Source: an uncultured Actinomycetes bacterium (GTDB lineage: Bacteria; Actinomycetota; Actinomycetes; S36-B12). From it: 64,000 nt of DNA. The position numbers were made by a program, and so were the translations under genes. The notes beneath the pieces were generated by a model. That model did not search any database and had not been told where the DNA came from. It worked only from the letters and a program-made list of their open reading frames with translations. This document shows, one piece after another, positions 4,263-60,369 of the stretch; the first letter of the stretch is position 1; each line of letters begins with the position of its first letter. Location of the stretch: NCBI GenBank assembly GCA_913057155.1, contig CAJXNV010000001.1, positions 1,354 through 65,353 on the forward strand. The letters are read 5' to 3'.

Positions 4263-5224
4263 CGATCGGCTCCTTCCACCATGAGTTCCTCGGGGCGGCC
4301 ACCGAGCAGCAGGTACAGCACCGCCATGCGCACGTGCACCCCGTTCGTCACCTGCTCGACCACCACGGCCCGCGGCGAATCGGCGACCTCGGCGGAGATC
4401 TCCACCCCACGGTTCATCGGCCCCGGGTGCAAGACGATCGCCTCGTCCGGCATCAAGGCCATCCGCCGGGAATCGAGTCCGTAGCGCCGGGAGTACTCGA
4501 GCTCGTTGGGAAAGTACGAACCGGCCATGCGTTCGGCTTGCACGCGCAGCATCATCACCGCATCGACGTGCGGCAGGACATCGTCGATGTCGTAACTGAC
4601 ATCGCACGGCCAGGTGTGCACGCCGTAGGGCAGCAAGGTCGGTGGCGCAACCACCGTGACCTGCGCGCCCAGCGTGCGCAGCAGCGCCACATTCGAACGC
4701 GCCACACGGCTGTGCAGGATGTCGCCGACGATCGCTACGCGAGCGCCCGCTAAGTCACCGCTCCCGGCTCGCAGGTGGTTGCGCAGCGTGAAGGCATCGA
4801 GCAGCGCCTGGGTGGGGTGCTCGTGGGTGCCATCACCGGCGTTGATCACCGAGCCTTGGATCCAGCCGGCATTCGCCAAGCGGTAAGGAGCACCGGAAGC
4901 ACCGTGGCGGATGATGACGGCGTCGGCTCCCATCGCCTCGAGCGTCAACGCCGTGTCCTTCAAACTCTCGCCCTTGGACAGCGAGGACCCCTTGGCCGCG
5001 AAGTTGATCACATCGGCCGATAGCCGCTTGGCCGCGAGCTCGAAGGAGATCCGGGTGCGCGTGGAATCCTCGAAGAACAACGTGACCACCGTGCGCCCGC
5101 GCAACGTGGGCAGCTTCTTGACCGATCGGTCGGTCACGGTCGCCAATTCCCCCGCGGTATCCAGGATGCGAACGGCGTCGGCCGACGTCAGATCCTGCGC
5201 CGAGAGCAGATGACGACCGATCAC
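4259..5224 (-). CDS. pyrB: aspartate carbamoyltransferase catalytic subunit
   Basis: Motifs [17 protein letters not shown] and HPGPMNRG. The likely start is GTG 5222-5224 (VIGRHLLS), which overlaps the pyrR stop as GTGA. The alternative start is 5266. Confidence 0.92.
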
Positions 5225-5787
5225 TGGCCCACCTGCGCGATGGTCACCGAATCGTCGTCGTCGCACTCGGTGAGGTGCACGTGCACCGTCTCGCTTTGCG
5301 AAGTGGGCAGGTTCTTGCCGATGAAGTCCGGGCGGATCGGTAGTTCGCGATGGCCCCGGTCGACGAGCACGGCGAGCCTGACCGCGGCGGGACGACCGAC
5401 ATCGGCGAGGGCATCGAGGGCGGCCCTGATCGTGCGACCGGAGTACAGGACATCGTCGACGAGCACCACGACCCGTCCGTCGATGCCTTCGGGGGGAATG
5501 CTCGTGGGTTCCAGGGCGCGCACCTCGCGAAGCCGCAGGTCGTCGCGATACAAGGTGATGTCCAAGGACCCGCAGGGCACACCCTGGCCGTCGATCGCTT
5601 CGCTTTCCTCGATCTCTTCGATCTGCCGGATCGCCGCCGCGATACGTCGGGCGAGATAGACGCCGCGGGTGGGTATTCCCAAGATCACGAGATCGTCGAC
5701 ACCCTTGGCCGATTCCAGGATCTCGTGGGACATCCGTCGTACCGCGCGCCGCACGTCCGACGCGTCGAGCACTGTGCGCTCAGGCAC
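5221..5787 (-). CDS. pyrR: bifunctional pyrimidine operon regulator / uracil phosphoribosyltransferase
   Basis: 188-aa ORF with the PRPP-binding loop [18 protein letters not shown]. It is the first gene of the pyr operon and uses a GTG start. Confidence 0.93.
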
Positions 5788-5840
5788 CGATCACCTTCCC
5801 CTTCCCCGCCTCTCGGGACGGGCTTAAAGGACCAGTCCCA
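5788..5840 (-). promoter_or_regulatory. PyrR-binding RNA hairpin in the pyrR leader, adjacent to or overlapping the Shine-Dalgarno sequence
   Basis: The minus-strand RNA reads GGUCCUUUAAGCCCGUCCCGAGAGGCGGGGAAGGGGAAGGUGAUCG-GUG. It contains CUUUAA plus GUCCCGAGAGGC, close to the PyrR binding-loop consensus ARUCCAGAGAGGYU. Stems CCUU/AAGG and CCCG/CGGG end 7-20 nt before the start codon. Confidence 0.7.
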
Positions 5841-5850
5841 AACCTACACC

Positions 5851-5969
5851 CCCGCGAACTTGCTGCCTGGGGGCGCGAACTTGCTGCCTGGGGGCGCGAA
5901 CTTGCTGCCTGGGAGCGCGAACTTGCTGCCTGGGGGCGCGAACTTGCGCAAATGGCGCCCGACTTTGCG
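5851..5969. repeat. left array of 21-bp-period tandem repeats (core GCGCGAACTTGCTG x4, then GCGCGAACTTGCGC, then a degenerate unit)
   Basis: Cores start at 5853, 5873, 5894, 5915 and 5936, with a degenerate unit at 5955-5969. The period is exactly 21 bp and the spacer is CCTGGGG. Confidence 0.95.
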
Positions 5970-6043
5970 ATGCCGTGCAGGACGCGTGCCGTCGTCGTAA
6001 TCGTCCTTTGCCCCTGGTACCAATGTGATCAATGAGGTGCGAA

Positions 6044-6141
6044 GCGCAAAGTCGGCTCCCAAGAGCGCAAGTTCGCGCTGTCAATCAGCAAGTTCGCGCT
6101 GTAGGTCAGCAAGTTCGCGCCGTAGGTCAGCAAGTTCGCGG
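6044..6141. repeat. right array of the same repeat in inverted orientation (core CAGCAAGTTCGCGC)
   Basis: Cores at 6044, 6065, 6086, 6107 and 6128 with a 21-bp period and spacers TGTAGGT, CGTAGGT and TGTCAAT. They are the reverse complement of the left-array cores. The array abuts the pyk stop codon (6142-6144). Confidence 0.95.
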
Positions 6142-7575
6142 TTAGACGCCGCCGCCGGGGCCGGCGCTGCCGATCTTGTGCACGCGCATCCCGTTGGTGG
6201 TTCCCGGGATGCCCGGCGGGACGCCAGCGACGATAACCACGCGCTCCCCCACGCTCGCCCGACCGATCTCCAGCAGCGCCTTGTCGACCTGCTGGACCAT
6301 GTCGTCGGTGTGCCGAACCTGCGGCACTAGGAACGTCTCGACTCCCCACACCAACGCGAGCTGGCTGCGCACCCGCGGGTTGGGCGTGAACGCCAACAGC
6401 GGGGTGTCGCAGCGCCAGCGGGCGATGAGCCGGGCCGAGCGCCCGGTCTCGGTGAAGGCGATCAGGTGCGAACCACCGACGTACTGCGCGACATCGACCG
6501 CGGCCCGCGTCATCGCGCGCGCGGTGGAACCGTGCACCTCCTCTTGCAGCGGTGGCAGTCGATCGAGGGCCTCGGACTCGACGTGCTCGATGATCGTGGA
6601 CATCGTCTGCACCACGAGGGCCGGGTTATGGCCGACGCTGGTCTCTCCGGAGAGCATGAGCGCATCGGCGCCGTCGAGGACGGCATTGGCGACGTCGCTG
6701 GCCTCCGCGCGGGTCGGTCGGCTGGCACTGATCATCGAGTCGAGCATCTGGGTCGCGACGATGACCGGCTTGCCGGCTTCCCGGCACTTTTGGATCGCGC
6801 GCTTTTGCACCAGGGGCACTTGCTCCAGCGGCAGTTCGACACCGAGGTCACCGCGCGCGACCATGATGCCGTCGAACGCTTGGACGATCTCCTCGAGGTT
6901 GTCGATCGCCTGCGGCTTCTCGACCTTCGCGAGCACCGGGACGCTGATGCCCTCGTTCTCCATGATGGCGTGGACTTCCTTGGCGTCGGCGGCCGAGCGC
7001 ACGAAGGACAGCGCCACCATGTCCGCGCCCATCCGCAGCGCCCAACGCAGATCCTCGACGTCCTTGTCCGAAAGCGCCGGCACGCTGACCGGGACACCGG
7101 GCAGGTTGAAGCCCTTGTGGTCGGAGACCCGTCCACCCTCGATCACGGTCGTATGCACGCGGGGCCCGTCCACCTTCGTGACCTGCAACTCGATGCGGCC
7201 GTCGTCGACGAGGACGAGGTCCCCGGGTGTGACGTCGCTCGGCAGGCCGGTGTGGGTGGTGGAGACCATGTGTCGATCGCCGGGGACGTCCTCGGTGGTG
7301 ACGATGAACTCCGCGCCGGATTCGAGCAGGACCGGGCCCTCGGCGAAGGTGCCCAACCGGATCTTGGGGCCTTGCAGGTCGACCAGGACCCCGACCCCGC
7401 GGCCGCTGGCATCGCTGGCCTGGCGCACGGCCAGGTAGGCCTGGCGGTGCACATCGTGGGTGCCGTGGGACAGGTTCAGCCGGGCGACATCCATCCCGGC
7501 ATCCACCAGTTCCCGGATCTGCTCGGGCGTGGAAACCGACGGGCCCAACGTGGCCACGATCTTGGCTCGGCGCAT
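6142..7575 (-). CDS. pyk: pyruvate kinase
   Basis: 477-aa ORF with N-terminus MRRAKIVATLGPS, plus NLSHG and MVARGDLGVE motifs. Confidence 0.95.
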   Translation of the reverse strand: MRRAKIVATLGPSVSTPEQIRELVDAGMDVARLNLSHGTHDVHRQAYLAVRQASDASGRGVGVLVDLQGPKIRLGTFAEGPVLLESGAEFIVTTEDVPGDRHMVSTTHTGLPSDVTPGDLVLVDDGRIELQVTKVDGPRVHTTVIEGGRVSDHKGFNLPGVPVSVPALSDKDVEDLRWALRMGADMVALSFVRSAADAKEVHAIMENEGISVPVLAKVEKPQAIDNLEEIVQAFDGIMVARGDLGVELPLEQVPLVQKRAIQKCREAGKPVIVATQMLDSMISASRPTRAEASDVANAVLDGADALMLSGETSVGHNPALVVQTMSTIIEHVESEALDRLPPLQEEVHGSTARAMTRAAVDVAQYVGGSHLIAFTETGRSARLIARWRCDTPLLAFTPNPRVRSQLALVWGVETFLVPQVRHTDDMVQQVDKALLEIGRASVGERVVIVAGVPPGIPGTTNGMRVHKIGSAGPGGGV

Positions 7576-7598: not shown

Positions 7599-9045
7599 TT
7601 ACACCATCAGTGGCCGCGCCGATGCCCGGATGGGCGAGGGCAGGTTGGTCGTGCCCATCAGGTAGCGGTCGACGCTCGCAGCGGCGGCACGTCCCTCCGC
7701 GATCGCCCACACGATCAGCGATTGACCGCGGCCGGCGTCGCCGGCGACGAAGACGCCCTCGACATCGGTCGCGTACTCGTCATCGCGGGCGATCGCGCCG
7801 CGTTCGGTGAGCGGCAGACCGAACTGCTCGATCAGCGGCCCCTGCTCCGGTCCGGTGAAGCCCATGGCCAACAGCACGGTGTCGGCCGGGATGCTGCGCT
7901 CGCTGCCGGCGACCGGCTGGAAGGAACCATCGACGAACTCGACGTCGACTAGGTGCAACGAGCGCACGTGTCCGTCGGCATCGCCCTCGAAACGCTCGGT
8001 GGACACCGCGAACATGCGTTCGCCGCCCTCCTCGTGGGCGCTGGAGACCCGGTAGGTCATCGGGAAGGTCGGCCACGGCTGGCTCGCGGGTCGCTCATCG
8101 GAGGGCCGCGGCATGATCTCCAACTGGGTGACGCTCGCCGCCCCTTGCCGGTGCGCCGTGCCTAGGCAATCGGCTCCGGTGTCGCCGCCGCCGATGATGA
8201 CGACGTGCTGACCCTCGACATCGAGGGGGGATTCCTCGAGATCGCCTTCTTGGACCTTGTTGGACCAGGGCAGGAACTCCATCGCCTGGTAGATGCCGGT
8301 GAGTTCGCGTCCGGGGATCGGCAGGTCACGCCACGCGGTAGCGCCGGTGGCGATCACGATGGCGTCGTAGCGCCGCCGCAGATCCGAGACGGTGACATCC
8401 ACCCCGACCTCGACGTTCGGCCGGAACTTAACGCCCTCGGCCTCCATCTGCTCCAGCCGCTGATCGAGGTGACGCTTTTCCATCTTGAATTCCGGGATGC
8501 CGTAGCGCAGCAACCCGCCGATGCGGTCACCTCGTTCGTAGACGGCGACGGTGTGTCCGGCGCGCGCGAGCTGCTGGGCTGCGGCCAGTCCGGCCGGACC
8601 CGAGCCGATGACGGCGACCGTCTTCCCGGTGAGCGATTCCGGCGGCTGGGGCGTGATCCACCCCGATTGCCAAGCGCGATCGACGATCGCCACTTCGACC
8701 TGCTTGATGGTGACCGGTTCGGCGTTGATGCCCAGCACGCACGCCGCCTCGCAAGGAGCCGGGCACAGCCGCCCGGTGAACTCCGGGAAGTTGTTCGTGG
8801 CGTGCAAACGCTCGATCGCCTGACCCCAGTCGCGGTCGTAGATGAGGTCGTTCCACTCGGGGATCAAGTTGCCCAGCGGGCAACCTTGGTGGCAGAACGG
8901 GATGCCGCAATCCATGCAGCGCCCGGCCTGCTTCTCCAGCGAGCGGGCATCGAACTCCTCGTAGACCTCCGACCAGTCCTTGATGCGCACATCGACCGGA
9001 CGCCGCTTGGGCAGCTCCCGCTCGGTGGTCAAGAAACCGCGTGGA

Positions 9046-9053
<8 letters not shown>
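7599..9053 (-). CDS. gltD: glutamate synthase (NADPH) small subunit
   Basis: 484-aa ORF with the Fe-S Cys cluster [10 protein letters not shown] and the dinucleotide fold [18 protein letters not shown]. It overlaps the gltB stop by 8 nt. Confidence 0.93.
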
Positions 9054-29194: not shown

Positions 29195-29896
29195 ATGGAA
29201 CCGCAGTTGCCGCTCTTCCCCTTGACGACGGCACTGGTTCCCGGCTTGGTCCTGCCGTTGCACATCTTCGAGCCGCGCTACCGCTTGATGGTCGAGGAAC
29301 TGCTCGCCAAGCCGGAGGAGGAACGCGAGTTCGGGATCGTCGCCGTTCGCGAACGGCACCTCGGGGCGGTCAACTCACCGGAAGCCTCCCCCAGCCAGGC
29401 CGATGAGTTCTTCCCGGTGGGTGTCACGGCTGTCCTTCGGCAAGCCGATCGGCTGGATGACGGTCGCTACGACATCGTCGCCGTGGGCGGTCGCCGCTTC
29501 AACGTGCAGCAGGTGGATCGCTCCGCACCGCTGTTGCGGGCCAGCGTGGACTTCCTCGAGGAGCCGGACGTGGATCCGGATGATCCGGCCATCCGAGGAG
29601 TCGTCGAGCGCGCCAAGCGTTCCTTCGAGCGGTACCGCGCCGCGCTCGGCGGGCGCCTGGACGAGCAGCGCCCCGAGGACGAGCAGATCCCCGACGATCC
29701 CACCGTGCTCAGTTACCTGATCACCGCCGCGTTGATCGTCGACGCCACCACCCGTCAGGAGCTGCTCGTCTCACCGGATGCGCGTACCCGGTTGATGACC
29801 GGGATCGGCGTGCTGGACACCGAGGCGGCACTGATCGGCGCACTCGGTGCGGTTCCGGCCCTGGACCTGCTGAACTCCTCGCCTTCGGCGAACTAG
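29195..29896 (+). CDS. LON-peptidase N-terminal (substrate-binding) domain protein
   Basis: 233-aa ORF with N-terminus [29 protein letters not shown], typical of the LON N-domain family. Confidence 0.8.
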
Positions 29897-29949
29897 CCAA
29901 GCAGCCTTCGGCGAACTAGCCAAGCGGACTTCGGCGAACTAGTCACGCG
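29881..29949. repeat. 23-bp tandem repeat x3 (GCCTTCGGCGAACTAGCCAAGCR)
   Basis: Units lie at 29881-29903, 29904-29926 and 29927-29949. The third is slightly diverged. Unit 1 contains the TAG stop of the LON-domain gene, and unit 3 ends at the ybaK ATG. Confidence 0.95.
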
Positions 29950-30459
29950 ATGAACGACCGGTCGGCGGGCACACCGGCACTGCGCTTCCTGCGCGCGCAG
30001 GGGATAGCGCACGAAGTGCACCGCTACCGGCACGAACCCGGAACCTCGGACTTCGGGGACGAGGCGGCTGCGCAACTGACTCGGCTTGTGGGCTGCGATC
30101 CATCCGCGATCTTCAAGACGCTGGTGTGGCTGGTCGATGGGCGTGCGTGCTTCGCGATCGCGCCCGTCACCGGGCAGGTTGCCGCGAAGCGGCTAGCGGC
30201 CGCGCTCGATGGCCGTAGTGCGGTCTTGGCCGACGAGCCCACCGCACGACGGATCTCGGGTTCCACCCTCGGCGCTATCTCCCCGATCGCGCCGCGCAGA
30301 GCGGTGCCCGTGGTCATCGACGTATCGGCCCACGATCACGATCGGGTCTTCTTGAGTGCGGGCCAGCGCGGAGTGGAGGTGGCGCTCGCACCCGCGGATC
30401 TGATCGCGGCCACCGATGCCACGGTCGCTGCTATCGCGCGCGGTTCGCGCGATAGCTAG
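29950..30459 (+). CDS. ybaK: Cys-tRNA(Pro)/Cys-tRNA(Cys) deacylase, YbaK family
   Basis: 169-aa ORF with TPALRFLRAQGIAHEVHRY, IFKTLV and ISPI motifs typical of YbaK trans-editing proteins. Confidence 0.8.
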   Translation: MNDRSAGTPALRFLRAQGIAHEVHRYRHEPGTSDFGDEAAAQLTRLVGCDPSAIFKTLVWLVDGRACFAIAPVTGQVAAKRLAAALDGRSAVLADEPTARRISGSTLGAISPIAPRRAVPVVIDVSAHDHDRVFLSAGQRGVEVALAPADLIAATDATVAAIARGSRDS

Positions 30460-36306: not shown

Positions 36307-37005
36307 CTAGAAGCGCTCTTCGGCTTCCTTGCACGAGCGGCACAGCGTCGCCCGCGGGAAGGCCTGCAACCGGTACTTCCCGATCGGCTTGCCGCAGGAT
36401 TCGCACACCCCGTAGGAGCCATCCGAGATCCGGGCCAGCGCGTGCTCCACCTGATCGAGCATGTCCCGGGCGTTGTTGGCCAGCGACATCTCGTGCTCGC
36501 GTTCGAAGGTCTTGCTACCGGCGTCGGCTTGATCGTCACCGGCGCCGTCGCCGGAATCACGGATCAGGTCGGCTAGGCCCTCCTCGGCGGTGGCGATCTC
36601 CTCCAGTAGTCGGGTCTTCTCCCGTCCGAGTTCCTCGCGCACCTCGCGCAACTCGGCGTCCGTCCACGGGGATTCGTCCTCCCGAACGACGGGTCGCCGC
36701 TTGGGCTTAGCTACCTTCTTGGCCGCCGGCGCTTTCTTAGCCGCCGCCTTCTTCGCGGGGGCCTTTTTGGCTGCCTTCTTGGCCGGCGCCTTCTTAGCGG
36801 GAGATTTCTTGGCCACCTTCTTGGCCGGCGCTTTCTTCGCGGGAGCCTTCTTGACCGCCTTCTTCGCCGGCGCCTTCTTCGTGGCTTTCTTGGCCGGTGC
36901 CTTCTTGGCCGGCGCCTTCTTCGTGGCTTTCTTGGCCGGCGCCTTCTTGGCCGCTTTCTTGGCCGTCTTCTTGGCCGTCTTCTTCGCGGCCGTCTTCTTG
37001 GCCAT
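36307..37005 (-). CDS. DksA/TraR C4 zinc-finger protein with an N-terminal histone-H1-like Lys/Ala/Pro repeat domain (DdbA-like)
   Basis: The C-terminus is [25 protein letters not shown] preceded by a coiled coil. The N-terminal ~110 aa are PAKKA/AKKT repeats. I start it at MAKKTAAKK (ATG 37003-37005). Confidence 0.85.
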
Positions 37006-58383: not shown

Positions 58384-58494
58384 GTCGGCTCCTCGTTCGC
58401 GGTCGAGTCGTGCTGGTGCATCTACTGGTCGTGTTGCTGTCGGAATTGGCCGGGTGTCGATATTCACCGTCCCGGTCAGGTCCCCGCCCGCTTT

Positions 58495-58532
58495 GCGCGT
58501 CCTGGCACCGGGGAAGGAGTGCCAGGGGGCGC
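58495..58532 (-). terminator. strong GC hairpin 30 nt downstream of mraZ (attenuator/terminator or part of a structured RNA)
   Basis: The minus-strand RNA is GCGC-CC-CCUGGCAC-[UCCUUCCCCG]-GUGCCAGG-AC-GCGC, giving 8 + 4 bp of stem. There is no U-tract. Confidence 0.5.
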
Positions 58533-58562
58533 CCAGCGGGTGGGGGCCTCACCGCAGGTGGG

Positions 58563-58994
58563 TCACAGCACCCCGGGGATCACCTCCTCGTCGATTCCGG
58601 AGAAGTCGTCTTCTTGCCGTCCGAGGTAGGTCTCCCAGGTGGCGGCGTCCCAGATCTCCGCCGTGCTGCCGTTTCCGACGACGATGACGTCGCGGTCGAG
58701 GCCGGCGTACTCGCGCAGTGCGGTCGGGACGGTCACCCGGCCTTGACGATCCGGGATCTCATCGGAGGCCCCGGAGAACAGCACCCGCAGGTAGGCACGA
58801 ACCCGAGCGTCGGATCGGGAGGCTTCGTTCAGGCGCTCGGAGTAGGCCGCGAACTCCGCCGCCGGCCAGACCACGATCGAACGGTCCTGGCCCTTGGTCA
58901 GGACCAGGCCGGCCGCGAGTTGCTCGCGGAACTTCGCCGGCAGGACCAGCCGACCCTTGTCGTCGAGTCGGGGAGCGTGGGTGCCCAAGAACAC
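58563..58994 (-). CDS. mraZ: transcriptional regulator MraZ
   Basis: 143-aa ORF with two SpoVT/AbrB-like halves ([13 protein letters not shown] and [13 protein letters not shown]). It is the first gene of the dcw cluster. Confidence 0.95.
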
Positions 58995-59199: not shown

Positions 59200-60369
59200 A
59201 TGCCCCGCCGGTCCCCTCGATCCGCGCCCCATGCAGCCACGGCGGCCACCGGACTGGCCCCACTGCTGGCCCCACTACTGGCCCTGTCGCTCGTCCTAGC
59301 CGCCTGCGGTGCGCCGACCTCCTCCCCCGCACCGACCGAGTCCGAACCGGCGTCGGCTTCCGCCACGCCAACTCCCACTTCCACCCCCACGCCGACGCCC
59401 ACGCCGACGCCAACCCCCACGCCGACCCCGACGCCCACGCCGACTTCTCCCCTGGACGGACTCCCCGACCCCACGCCCGGGCCGGTCCTCGCGGTCAAGC
59501 TCGACAACACCCGCAACGCTCAGCCGCACGCGGGACTACACGAAGCGGATGTCGTCTACATCGAGGAAGTCGAGTACGGCATCACCCGACTAGCCGCCGT
59601 GTTCGCCGACGACGTCCCCCGACGCATCGGCCCGGTCCGATCGGCCCGCATCACCGACATCGACCTACTGGCCCAATACGGGTCCCCTGCCTTCAGCTTC
59701 TCCGGCGTGCAGCGCAAGATGTGGCCGGTCATCGCCGGATCGACGCTGATCGACATCTCACCCAATAAGGCGGCATCGGCGTACGAACGCGACTTCTCCC
59801 GTCGCGCCCCCTACAACTACTTCCTCGATGGTCGGCAGGGACTGAAGGCGGCACCCGATGCTTCCCTCGAACGCGATATCGGCTTCACCTTCGCCGATAG
59901 CCCGCCCCCCGATGGCAAGGTCGGGCTGTCGGCTCGGGTCGACTGGCCGGCGGCTTCAGCGGAATTCCGCTACGACCAGGCATCGCGCCTGTACTTGGTC
60001 GAACTCAACGATCGCCCGGCGCAAGCCGAGGAGCACGAGGATGGTCAACGGGCGGCGACCGTCGTCATCCAGTACGTGGAGCAGAACCCCTCGCAGTTCT
60101 TCGACAAAGGCGGCGGGAACACCCCGCACGCGGAGACCATCGGCAAGGGCAAGGCCGTGATCTTGCGTGATGGGCTGCGCTACGACGCTCGCTGGAAGCG
60201 CACCGATGCCGATGCCGGCACCACCTTCACCACCAAGGACGGTGAACCGTTGGCCTTCAAGCCCGGTCAGGTCTGGGTGGCACTCGCGGATAAGACGCGG
60301 CCGGCAACGCTGTTCCCGGCACCCGCGAAGGAAGCATCCGCCGACGAGGAAGCGGACTCAGCGCAGTAG
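59200..60369 (+). CDS. DUF3048-domain lipoprotein with a Pro/Thr linker
   Basis: Signal peptide with lipobox LVLAAC, then a (TP)n linker, then a domain with VLAVKLDNTRNAQPHAGL and VVYIEEVEYGITRLAAVF motifs. I start it at ATG 59200. The track start at 59053 lies in the mraZ promoter. Confidence 0.75.
   Translation: MPRRSPRSAPHAATAATGLAPLLAPLLALSLVLAACGAPTSSPAPTESEPASASATPTPTSTPTPTPTPTPTPTPTPTPTPTSPLDGLPDPTPGPVLAVKLDNTRNAQPHAGLHEADVVYIEEVEYGITRLAAVFADDVPRRIGPVRSARITDIDLLAQYGSPAFSFSGVQRKMWPVIAGSTLIDISPNKAASAYERDFSRRAPYNYFLDGRQGLKAAPDASLERDIGFTFADSPPPDGKVGLSARVDWPAASAEFRYDQASRLYLVELNDRPAQAEEHEDGQRAATVVIQYVEQNPSQFFDKGGGNTPHAETIGKGKAVILRDGLRYDARWKRTDADAGTTFTTKDGEPLAFKPGQVWVALADKTRPATLFPAPAKEASADEEADSAQ

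Follow-up and report, generated by a model that had tools for sequence, protein, structure and literature searches.

What are the two inverted arrays of a 21-bp-period repeat that lie between pyk (pyruvate kinase) and pyrR in an uncultured actinobacterium, and do they serve these two genes? The arrays are part of a 64,000-nt stretch of lineage S36-B12 of the Actinomycetes (assembly GCA_913057155.1, contig CAJXNV010000001.1, positions 1,354 to 65,353), hereafter the window, in which all coordinates are given. A first-pass annotation had proposed two forms for the locus, i.e., a segmented hairpin or cruciform of about 290 nt, or two groups of phased protein-binding iterons that oppose each other along one helix face. 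We found that the arrays are one copy of a genome-wide dispersed repeat family and not a special pyk/pyrR control element. From the family data we consider, at a probability of roughly 45%, that the conserved feature is a phased core site on double-stranded DNA for a candidate sequence-specific protein, that arrays are gained and lost at gene boundaries and that the hairpin would be incidental.

Tandem Repeats Finder reported period-21 arrays at 5853-5947 (4.5 copies, 97% matches) and at 6067-6140 (3.5 copies, 92% matches), and a repeat search paired 5852-5949 with 6044-6141 as inverted arms of 98 nt with 76% complementarity. The 14-mer GCGCGAACTTGCTG, counted with up to two mismatches, occurred 13 times in the window, nine of these at the pyk-pyrR locus; 0.87 matches were expected, and none of 100 shuffled sequences reached 13. 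All three analyses hence confirmed the two opposed arrays. The unit was revised: it had been described as a 14-bp core with a 7-bp spacer, and it consists of the non-palindromic 11-nt core CGCGAACTTGC followed by a 10-nt spacer. Outside the pyk-pyrR locus, the 64-kb window contained no exact copy of this core.

To define the family, we scanned genomes and metagenomes for two exact cores 21 nt apart. One-genome-per-species contigs yielded 33 stretches, nearly all from five actinobacterial metagenome-assembled genomes (MAGs) with 4-7 contigs each, many of the arrays standing at contig ends. Two of these MAGs are labelled Candidatus Nanopelagicales, the others 'uncultured actinobacterium', 'Actinomycetes bacterium' and Nocardioides daejeonensis. 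Metagenome contigs gave 106 matches and viral contigs none, and a blastn search of 5780-6200 against plasmid and phage records returned a single 32-nt chance hit. After chance or coding look-alikes had been dropped, about 150 arrays fell into about 40 outer-flank clusters, which we took as distinct loci; individual orthologous loci recurred across different species. The genes that carry arrays include sdhB, the convergent pair valS/clpX and pyk, as named by sequence or source, and, by reading of translations, genes for an ABC ATPase, an LCP-family protein, a cysteine synthase and a DinB-like protein. The flanks are chromosomal housekeeping genes, among which no neighbour recurred.

The core is thus dispersed over about 40 intergenic loci in several genomes, which largely refutes a role specific to this locus; for the window the result is deflationary, in that no pyk or pyr regulation is needed to explain the structure. 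The counter-case named in the annotation, a generic dispersed repeat without positional preference, held for the dispersal and failed for the position, as the arrays are strongly biased to gene boundaries and especially to sites just after stop codons. Its alternative, a lack of the structure in orthologous pyk-pyrR spacers, was borne out for lineages at 95% and 81% identity, which are without the arrays altogether. A description of the family was not found in the searchable literature or in Rfam, an absence limited to those libraries; a full-text search with the core sequence returned primers only, and a keyword search for similar repeats nothing relevant. The family is new, REP/BIME- or MIRU-like, with an unusually rigid architecture.

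The 21-bp phasing noted at pyk-pyrR holds family-wide, with 392 of 395 unit-to-unit steps being exactly 21 nt. Core positions 3-11 were conserved to about 100% and positions 1-2 to about 92%, figures that are inflated by the retrieval with exact cores, and cores were unchanged across units, loci and species. The 392 spacers comprised 184 different sequences of low information content and fixed length; a few types, GCTGTGGGAG and GCAAATACGG-like ones, recurred in unrelated loci. Between orthologous arrays the spacers were 0.76-0.78 identical, the non-coding inner flank 0.76 and the coding flank 0.96. Spacers behave like ordinary non-coding DNA except for their constant length. Arrays contained 2-8 units, and the variation in copy number between strains that had been suggested for checking was found: unit number differed in 46 of 71 orthologous pairs, and at the pyk-pyrR locus the arms had 5+4, 5+5 or 3+4 units. 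The arrays are strain-level length markers; they also break assemblies, many contigs ending in them. Purifying selection on core and spacing would be the simplest account of these data, because ectopic gene conversion would homogenise the spacers together with the cores.

Some arrays depart from this pattern. At L078 (compared loci and contigs are cited by L numbers), positions 875-1100 consist of 21-nt units in which one half-unit, CGCGAACTTGC, is joined to another, CGCGGACTTG(C); a second core may thus have been the ancestor of the spacer. L088, a possible relative of the family with lower G+C, carries at 176-270 units of 21 nt in which the palindrome TGAACTTGCAAGTTCA occurs. A polar turnover that would make the outer units the newer ones throughout the family was visible at pyk-pyrR and a few other loci and was not supported overall, since pooled first and last spacers both scored about 0.77.

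The two ends of an array differ. On the strand reading CGCGAACTTGC the 5' end is sharp, and the opposite end sometimes trails into decayed units. The first core averaged 10.95/11 identity, and the phased 11-mer one step outward was at random level (3.15 vs 3.03); one step past the inner end, identity was 4.10/11. The inner decay is only mild. In about 20 clusters a long same-strand open reading frame (ORF) with high third-position G+C stops 1-5 nt before the first core, most often 1-3 nt. The stop was TAA in 15 of 20 such clusters compared with five of the 35 long ORFs of the window (P ~2e-9), and the MAG labelled Nocardioides had TGA or TAG at this position. In the other examined clusters the outer end faces the start of the outward gene, with a -10-like TANNNT located 6-14 nt from the core and 6-7 nt from the ATG or GTG. 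Of 38 clusters, 24 had the motif CTA[A/C] no more than 14 nt from the first core, compared with 3% of random windows (P ~3e-27). It marks only the outer end of the array and not each unit, and the last six flank bases were 51% C.

Does the element bring the stop codon with it? This fits pyk, where the gene ends in GTG TAG without the arrays and in GTC TAA with them. As a general rule it fails at sdhB: SdhB ends in ...FRRV in most of 120 listed homologues, and GTC TAA is also present in a lineage that has no array there. At sdhB the final Val, and in a single lineage also GTC TAA, thus occur where there is no array, so that the element cannot be the source of every stop codon. We also considered integron attC-like sites, given that CTAAC/GTTAG resemble inverse-core and core boxes, and rejected them: solo arrays cannot fold, only 3 of about 20 junctions fit GTTRRRY, and each arm has many boxes. 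GAACTTG may resemble IS91/rolling-circle nick sites, and CGAAC may resemble half-sites of LexA or ClgR.

How is such an array placed at the pyk-pyrR locus? All genes of the neighbourhood are on the minus strand, in the order GltD-like oxidoreductase, pyk, element, PyrR, PyrB, PyrC. Alleles of related genomes with the block are called filled and those lacking it empty. The features are as follows.

5853-6150, no strand: whole block, 298 nt, boundaries ambiguous by 2 nt (GG/CC).
5853-5947, plus strand: left (pyrR-side) array of 5 units, cores CGCGAACTTGC at 5853, 5874, 5895, 5916 and 5937; spacers TGCCTGGGGG (three times), TGCCTGGGAG and GCAAATGGCG; sharp outer end at 5853.
5958-5968, plus strand: decayed sixth unit of the left arm, CCCGACTTTGC, 8/11 identical to the core, 21-nt phase retained.
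5969-6045, no strand: centre between the arms, unique sequence, conserved in the strain variants L140, L141 and L086.
6046-6056, minus strand: fifth unit of the right arm, decayed; minus-strand reading GCCGACTTTGC, 8/11 identical to the core.
6067-6140, minus strand: right (pyk-side) array of 4 units, cores at 6130-6140, 6109-6119, 6088-6098 and 6067-6077; spacers TGACCTACGG, TGACCTACAG, TGATTGACAG and GCTCTTGGGA; outer end at 6140.
6141-6150, minus strand: outer junction on the pyk side, GGCGTCTAAC, composed of GGC GTC (the two final codons of pyk), its stop TAA at 6142-6144 and a C that precedes the first core.
5841-5852, minus strand: outer flank of the left arm, AACCTACACCCC on the plus strand and GGGGTGTAGGTT on the minus strand.
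5681-5834, minus strand: PyrR-binding leader of pyrR, context outside the element, intact in filled and empty alleles.
5221-5787, minus strand: pyrR ORF.
6142-7575, minus strand: pyk (pyruvate kinase; Pfam PK and PK_C).
7599-9053, minus strand: gene for a GltD-like oxidoreductase.

The annotation needed small corrections. The first left core starts with CC and not with GC (5852/5853), and the right-hand core placed at 6044 is actually the decayed unit at 6046-6056, like its left counterpart at 5958-5968. The centre had no significant match in any other locus. As had been stated, the array abuts pyk: a single base separates the first core from the stop TAA, which is the complement of 6142-6144. 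The junction at 6141-6150 carries the CTAAC motif of the family and is inside the block that empty alleles lack. The flank at 5841-5852 is host sequence of the CTAC-N-CCC(C) type; in empty alleles it forms the end of pyk (GTG TAG), overlapping the -10-like TAGGTT before the PyrR leader, and the outermost core of the left arm is 6 nt upstream of this TAGGTT. Also the separation of the PyrR-type hairpin from the arrays was borne out, by an Rfam RF00515 covariance match at 5681-5834 on the minus strand (29.4 bits, under the gathering score of 54).

PyrR homologues led to the gltD-pyk-pyrR-pyrB-pyrC neighbourhood in several lineages; the window PyrR itself had no exact record. The site was occupied as follows, with nucleotide identities to the window over pyrR-pyrB unless stated otherwise.

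Window: filled, 5+4 units.
L140 and L141, 98-99%: filled, 5+5 units.
L086, 98.6% (whole aligned segment): filled, 3+4 units.
L057, 94%: pyrR side filled, with the contig stopping inside the array.
L011, 82% (measured on the pyk side): filled, with 8 or more units in the pyk-side arm.
L109, 77%: pyrR side filled, with 5 units.
L142 and L143, 95%: empty.
L144-146, 81%: empty.
L147 and L148, 76%: a different array, CCCCGAACGGGCACAAACTAAC three times (period 22), at the same GGCGTCTAAC junction.

In empty alleles the gap between pyk and pyrR is 56 nt, and Pyk ends in ...GGG GTG TAG. This TAG is the first half of the -10-like TAGGTT just upstream of the PyrR hairpin (window 5841-5846; L142 2440-2450), so that a stop codon and a possible promoter overlap very compactly. 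Adding 298 nt (5853-6150) to the empty allele gives the filled one, and no more than 2 bp (GG) are duplicated. The inserted block opens with its own GGC GTC TAA C, and Pyk still ends in Gly-Val-stop; the old GGGGTGTAGGTT is now found beyond the other arm. The 9-nt gene end is present twice, in the differing versions GGCGTCTAA and GGGGTGTAG, and the three differences between them (GTAGG vs CTAAC) exactly create the CTAAC junction of the family. These two copies may go back to a 9-bp target duplication that was later reshaped, to a terminus brought by the element or to a frame-restoring deletion. Whatever its course, the history of the site needs several independent events with identical junctions, i.e., at least two precise losses or at least three gains. 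Repeated events with identical junctions therefore point to a site-selective process.

The 22-nt array of L147 (2313-2380; also L148 1-60) consists of CCCCGAACGGGCACAAACTAAC units that each end in CTAAC, and a variant core of this lineage is CCCGAACGGGC. In L149-156 a single CGGCGAACGG directly follows the sdhB stop (GTCTAAAC). Both observations suggest core variants of the CGAACGG type in other lineages.

A second pair of filled and empty sites was found in the spacer upstream of the DinB-like gene, comparing L030 and its relatives with L001/L053. The array begins right after the host sequence ACGCTACTCCC, a flank of the CTAC-N-CCC type as at pyrR; L001/L053 lack the left array and have the native ACGCTACTCCC. 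The arrays flanking the DinB-like gene (L030 310-335 and 1327-1352; also L127, L132, L138 and L069) share an identical 15-nt outer flank, CCCACGCTACTCCCC. Read on the complement, it puts a TAGCGT at a distance of 6-7 nt from the start codon (ATG or GTG) of each of the two outward genes. We read this geometry as that of putative leaderless-type promoters, and the right-hand flank may be a copied promoter. Homologues of the ClpX C-terminus were tried as a further source of empty sites; they were mostly gene fragments and gave no usable site.

More than half of the arrays (about 60%) are solo. In spacers that have an array at each boundary, the arrays are turned towards one another, inner ends together. 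The gap between the arms was 6-8 modulo 21 in six of eight independent paired loci, and at one of these loci it was 28, 49 and 91 in different genomes; the pair in the window, with a gap of 119 (14 modulo 21), deviates from this, as does one other locus. Towards the middle, the decayed inner units lead to a centre of the form 'core - GC(N)2-4GC - reverse core'. The pairs are thus long in-register palindromes that change length only by whole units. The spacers of opposite arms do not pair, as had already been noted for pyk-pyrR and was confirmed there, and a change in one arm has no counterpart in the other. Genes enclosed by inverted arrays were ordinary and syntenic (DinB-like, LysE-type exporter, DUF559-like), and none of them was enclosed at more than one orthologous locus. 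The loci examined by ORF listing showed no transposase-like gene between or beside arrays.

The orientation of arrays relative to transcription varied, i.e., sense after a stop, antisense before a downstream start, or antisense with the inner end 4 nt after a stop. As orientation is not fixed, this argues against a strand-specific role in RNA and for recognition as duplex DNA. Folding calculations gave a minus-strand RNA of 5780-6150 a predicted -201.8 kcal/mol (z = -8.2 vs shuffles), so that the long segmented hairpin of about 290 nt put forward by the annotation is physically possible. Conservation in the family does not extend to such a hairpin: of ten folds of solo arrays, from seven arrays, eight were within z -2.5 to +2.2 of shuffles. 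One array gave +1.9 and +2.2 for its two strands, and one reached -5.1.

Other transcript-level features were looked for at the locus. Between 5600 and 6400 the scan found no terminator-like site (G+C-rich hairpin followed by a T run), which speaks against an intrinsic terminator. Likewise, it found no promoter-like (sigma-70-like) site at the arrays or inside units, and promoter elements within units were dropped as a candidate; no tRNA was detected. In Rfam the arrays matched no family, and the only hit was the sub-threshold leader beside the element, so a PyrR-binding attenuator within the arrays was rejected as well. Translation of an array after read-through was discarded, because the frame is inconsistent and the pyk-side array meets a stop after four codons.

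The second of the annotation's two forms, phased sites on one face of the helix, is thus favoured by the family data (invariant core, rigid 21-bp period, free spacers), as a genome-wide feature and not as pyk/pyrR regulation. Because an asymmetric 11-bp word recurs at exactly two helical turns with free spacers, we tentatively read the arrays as sites of cooperative head-to-tail binding, comparable to iterons or to transposon ends with multiple sites. On this proposal, the core at exact two-turn spacing on double-stranded DNA would be the object under selection, and the array would be a platform on which a sequence-specific protein binds head-to-tail on one helix face. Arrays would grow and shrink by whole units through slippage or unequal recombination, and inverted pairs would arise from fold-back duplication about a 6-8-nt centre, followed by unit slippage. 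A site-selective process would install or remove blocks at gene boundaries. At pyk-pyrR, insertion would have split the overlapping pyk stop and -10-like TAGGTT while keeping the Pyk C-terminus and the PyrR leader intact, and the hairpin potential of about 290 nt would be a by-product of the facing arrays, at most an extra barrier between transcription units. If so, an uncultured high-G+C actinobacterial clade would have a repeat grammar pointing to a specific protein partner. Its elements are an asymmetric 11-bp word that does not vary, a spacing of exactly two turns, spacers free to drift, an outer junction defined at stop codons and recurrent gain or loss at the same site. It possibly also points to a novel means by which compact genomes mark their genes or keep them apart.

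Several points weigh against this proposal. No binding protein was identified, and a genome-wide search for one was not made. Core invariance is partly due to ascertainment, since loci were retrieved by two exact cores, and homogeneous arrays with variant cores do exist (CGCGAACCCGC, GACGAACATGC, GCCGAACCTGC), so positions 8-9 are not absolutely constrained. A DNA-binding platform alone leaves the array starts 1-3 nt after stops and the CTAAC junction unexplained. The in-register palindromic architecture of pairs could mean that a folded hairpin or cruciform form matters, and a mobile element would be expected just as well to leave clean empty sites, to form inverted pairs and to come or go repeatedly at a single site. 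On a bolder version, which we regard as speculative and unlikely, the arrays would be an undescribed chromosomal repeat-spacer module that a dedicated protein installs, extends and removes site-specifically at CTA[A/C]/C-rich boundary junctions, with a gene-boundary role as insulator or roadblock. Installation would then often re-create the stop codon, and the agent could be a nuclease or recombinase or the array-binding factor itself. Such modules would be boundary elements of compact actinobacterial genomes with overlapping stops, -10 boxes and starts.

A mobile origin without host function is the most serious rival, if a less likely one. The arrays would then be non-autonomous miniature inverted-repeat transposable elements (MITEs) or foldback elements with the cores as subterminal sites of a transposase or HUH-type nuclease, paired copies being complete and solo arrays half-elements; outer ends would be termini, and core conservation would stem from selection for mobility plus gene conversion from active copies. 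Much of the family would suit this, as it is dispersed in many copies, includes inverted arrays that are sharply bounded on the outside and carry a junction motif at the terminus, shows clean empty and filled sites at two loci and a pattern at pyk-pyrR that needs several independent events with always the same junctions, shares spacer types such as GCTGTGGGAG between unrelated loci and often ends contigs. But the target-site duplication is at most 2 bp, about 60% of arrays are solo, and the loci examined by ORF listing showed no transposase-like gene between or beside arrays. Viral-contig, phage or plasmid matches were absent from our searches. Moreover, arrays persist at orthologous sites in lineages only 77-82% identical, with perfect cores and drifted spacers, which mobility alone would not maintain. 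Another rival, a passive minisatellite produced by local slippage, whose likeness between loci is kept by ectopic gene conversion while nothing binds or uses it, appears highly improbable. Strain-variable unit numbers and near-identical spacers within an array would agree with it, as would other stop-including tandem duplications of the clade (in L166 a 54-nt repeat where sdhB ends, in L147 the array of period 22, and in the window the 23-nt array at 29881-29942). Conversion tracts would homogenise the spacers too, yet 184 spacer variants accompany one core; spacer length is constant despite saturated substitution (392 of 395 steps), and one core at about 40 unrelated loci in several species needs a spreading mechanism.

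Two further explanations concern pyk-pyrR itself. That the ~290-nt hairpin terminates or stabilises the pyk transcript and insulates the pyrR leader, and was selected for this, we consider improbable, in spite of the strong predicted fold (-201.8 kcal/mol, z = -8.2), the location exactly between the pyk stop and the -10-like TAGGTT before the leader, and paired arrays elsewhere that are mostly found between convergent genes with a palindromic register down to a 6-8-nt loop. Against it stand sister lineages without the element, opposite-arm spacers that never pair and have no compensating changes, the solo-array folds near shuffles (8/10 within -2.5 to +2.2), the absence of terminator-like sites with a T-run in 5600-6400 and the variable orientation to transcription. 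Regulatory iterons specific to the pyk or pyr operon, e.g., an operator array for a pyrimidine or glycolysis regulator, are barely conceivable: only the position would suggest them, as the arrays separate pyk from the pyrR leader and their outermost core precedes TAGGTT by 6 nt. The same arrays flank unrelated genes (sdhB, clpX and valS; by translation, ABC ATPase, LCP-family protein and cysteine synthase), and close relatives that keep the PyrR leader lack arrays in the same spacer. The family-wide distribution already contradicts this explanation.

Among known systems, REP/BIME elements of enterobacteria and pseudomonads, with their RAYT transposases and REPIN doublets, come close in several respects. 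Their unit is an imperfect palindrome of 20-40 nt that by itself can form a hairpin, and some are bound by host proteins in Escherichia coli (gyrase, IHF, Pol I). Like our family, they are short extragenic repeats after stops and between convergent genes, occur singly, in clusters or as inverted hairpin-capable doublets and vary in copy number between strains. They also have a CTAC/GTAG-like tetranucleotide at the edge, which in the family is found only at the outer end of the array and not in each unit. Unlike REP/BIME, the family has non-palindromic units in strict head-to-tail 21-bp order with variable spacers, solo arrays without consistent excess structure, and tens of loci instead of hundreds. 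The MIRU-VNTR loci of the Mycobacterium tuberculosis complex have units of 46-101 bp, oriented with the operon, and small ORFs that overlap the neighbouring genes. They share with the family the actinobacterial intergenic tandem repeats at a few dozen loci, the contact with stops or starts and copy-number polymorphism between strains; in contrast, the family has 21-bp units with an 11-bp invariant core in either orientation, inverted pairs, stop distances of 1, 2 or 3 nt and no kept reading frame.

Plasmid iterons and type II centromeres (R6K and RK2 iterons; R1 parC with its two sets of five repeats) resemble the arrays in direct repeats of about two helical turns, in the conservation of part of the unit and in 3-8 units, sometimes in two sets, a pattern which by analogy would suit cooperative binding on one face. 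They stand beside their own rep or par gene on one replicon, whereas the arrays are found at about 40 chromosomal boundaries with no common neighbour. MITEs, foldback elements and Tn7/Mu-type ends likewise have inverted arrays of ~21-22-bp sites with sharp termini, presence/absence variation and clean empty sites. The family differs in a duplication of at most 2 bp, in its many solo arrays and in orthologous persistence across species, and no autonomous partner was noticed in the loci examined by ORF listing; the terminal inverted repeats of MITEs are present in paired copies, and most arrays are solo.

The DUS of Neisseria and USS of Haemophilus are DNA-uptake sequences that occur as single words about once per kb. 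They recall the family as invariant non-palindromic intergenic words of 10-12 nt, often as inverted pairs after ORFs. An uptake sequence was rejected, as the 64 kb contained no isolated exact core and words were found only in phased arrays. CRISPR arrays, with 21-48-nt repeats and 26-72-nt unique spacers, were rejected too, since the family has an 11-nt core and 10-nt spacers of few related types that are repeated within arrays.

The window contains a second tandem array at 29881-29942, a 23-nt unit CCTTCGGCGAACTAGCCAAGCAG present 2.7 times, whose variant core GGCGAACTAGC agrees with that of the family at 9 of 11 positions. The array takes up the whole spacer from a gene of 233 amino acids (29195-29896, read as Lon N-terminal-like), whose TAG stop is inside the first unit, to a gene of 169 amino acids, read as YbaK-like, with its ATG at 29950. 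This array looks like a sister sub-family; no copy of it was found in the array loci examined. In L166 a 54-nt tandem repeat at 1440-1610 includes, three times, the last sdhB codons and the stop (CGCGTCTGAACGAGGAGTGAGC...), a further tandem duplication of the clade with its beginning within a gene end. One contig, L025, from a MAG labelled Rubrivirga, was 100% identical over 187 nt to the flank of the actinobacterial array locus L039 (compared with L039/L065) and contains N runs; it is probably mis-binned.

Three features of the window lie outside the arrays. The mraW RNA motif (RF01746) at 58458-58565 on the minus strand, with 70.6 bits, is the only Rfam family above its gathering score. A CCACGC repeat occurs 13 times at 59363-59444. 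At 36724-37003 a nested tandem repeat has periods of 12, 15, 27, 42 and 69 and a unit around GCCTTCTTGGC; at a guess, it codes for a Lys/Ala-rich repeat on the minus strand.

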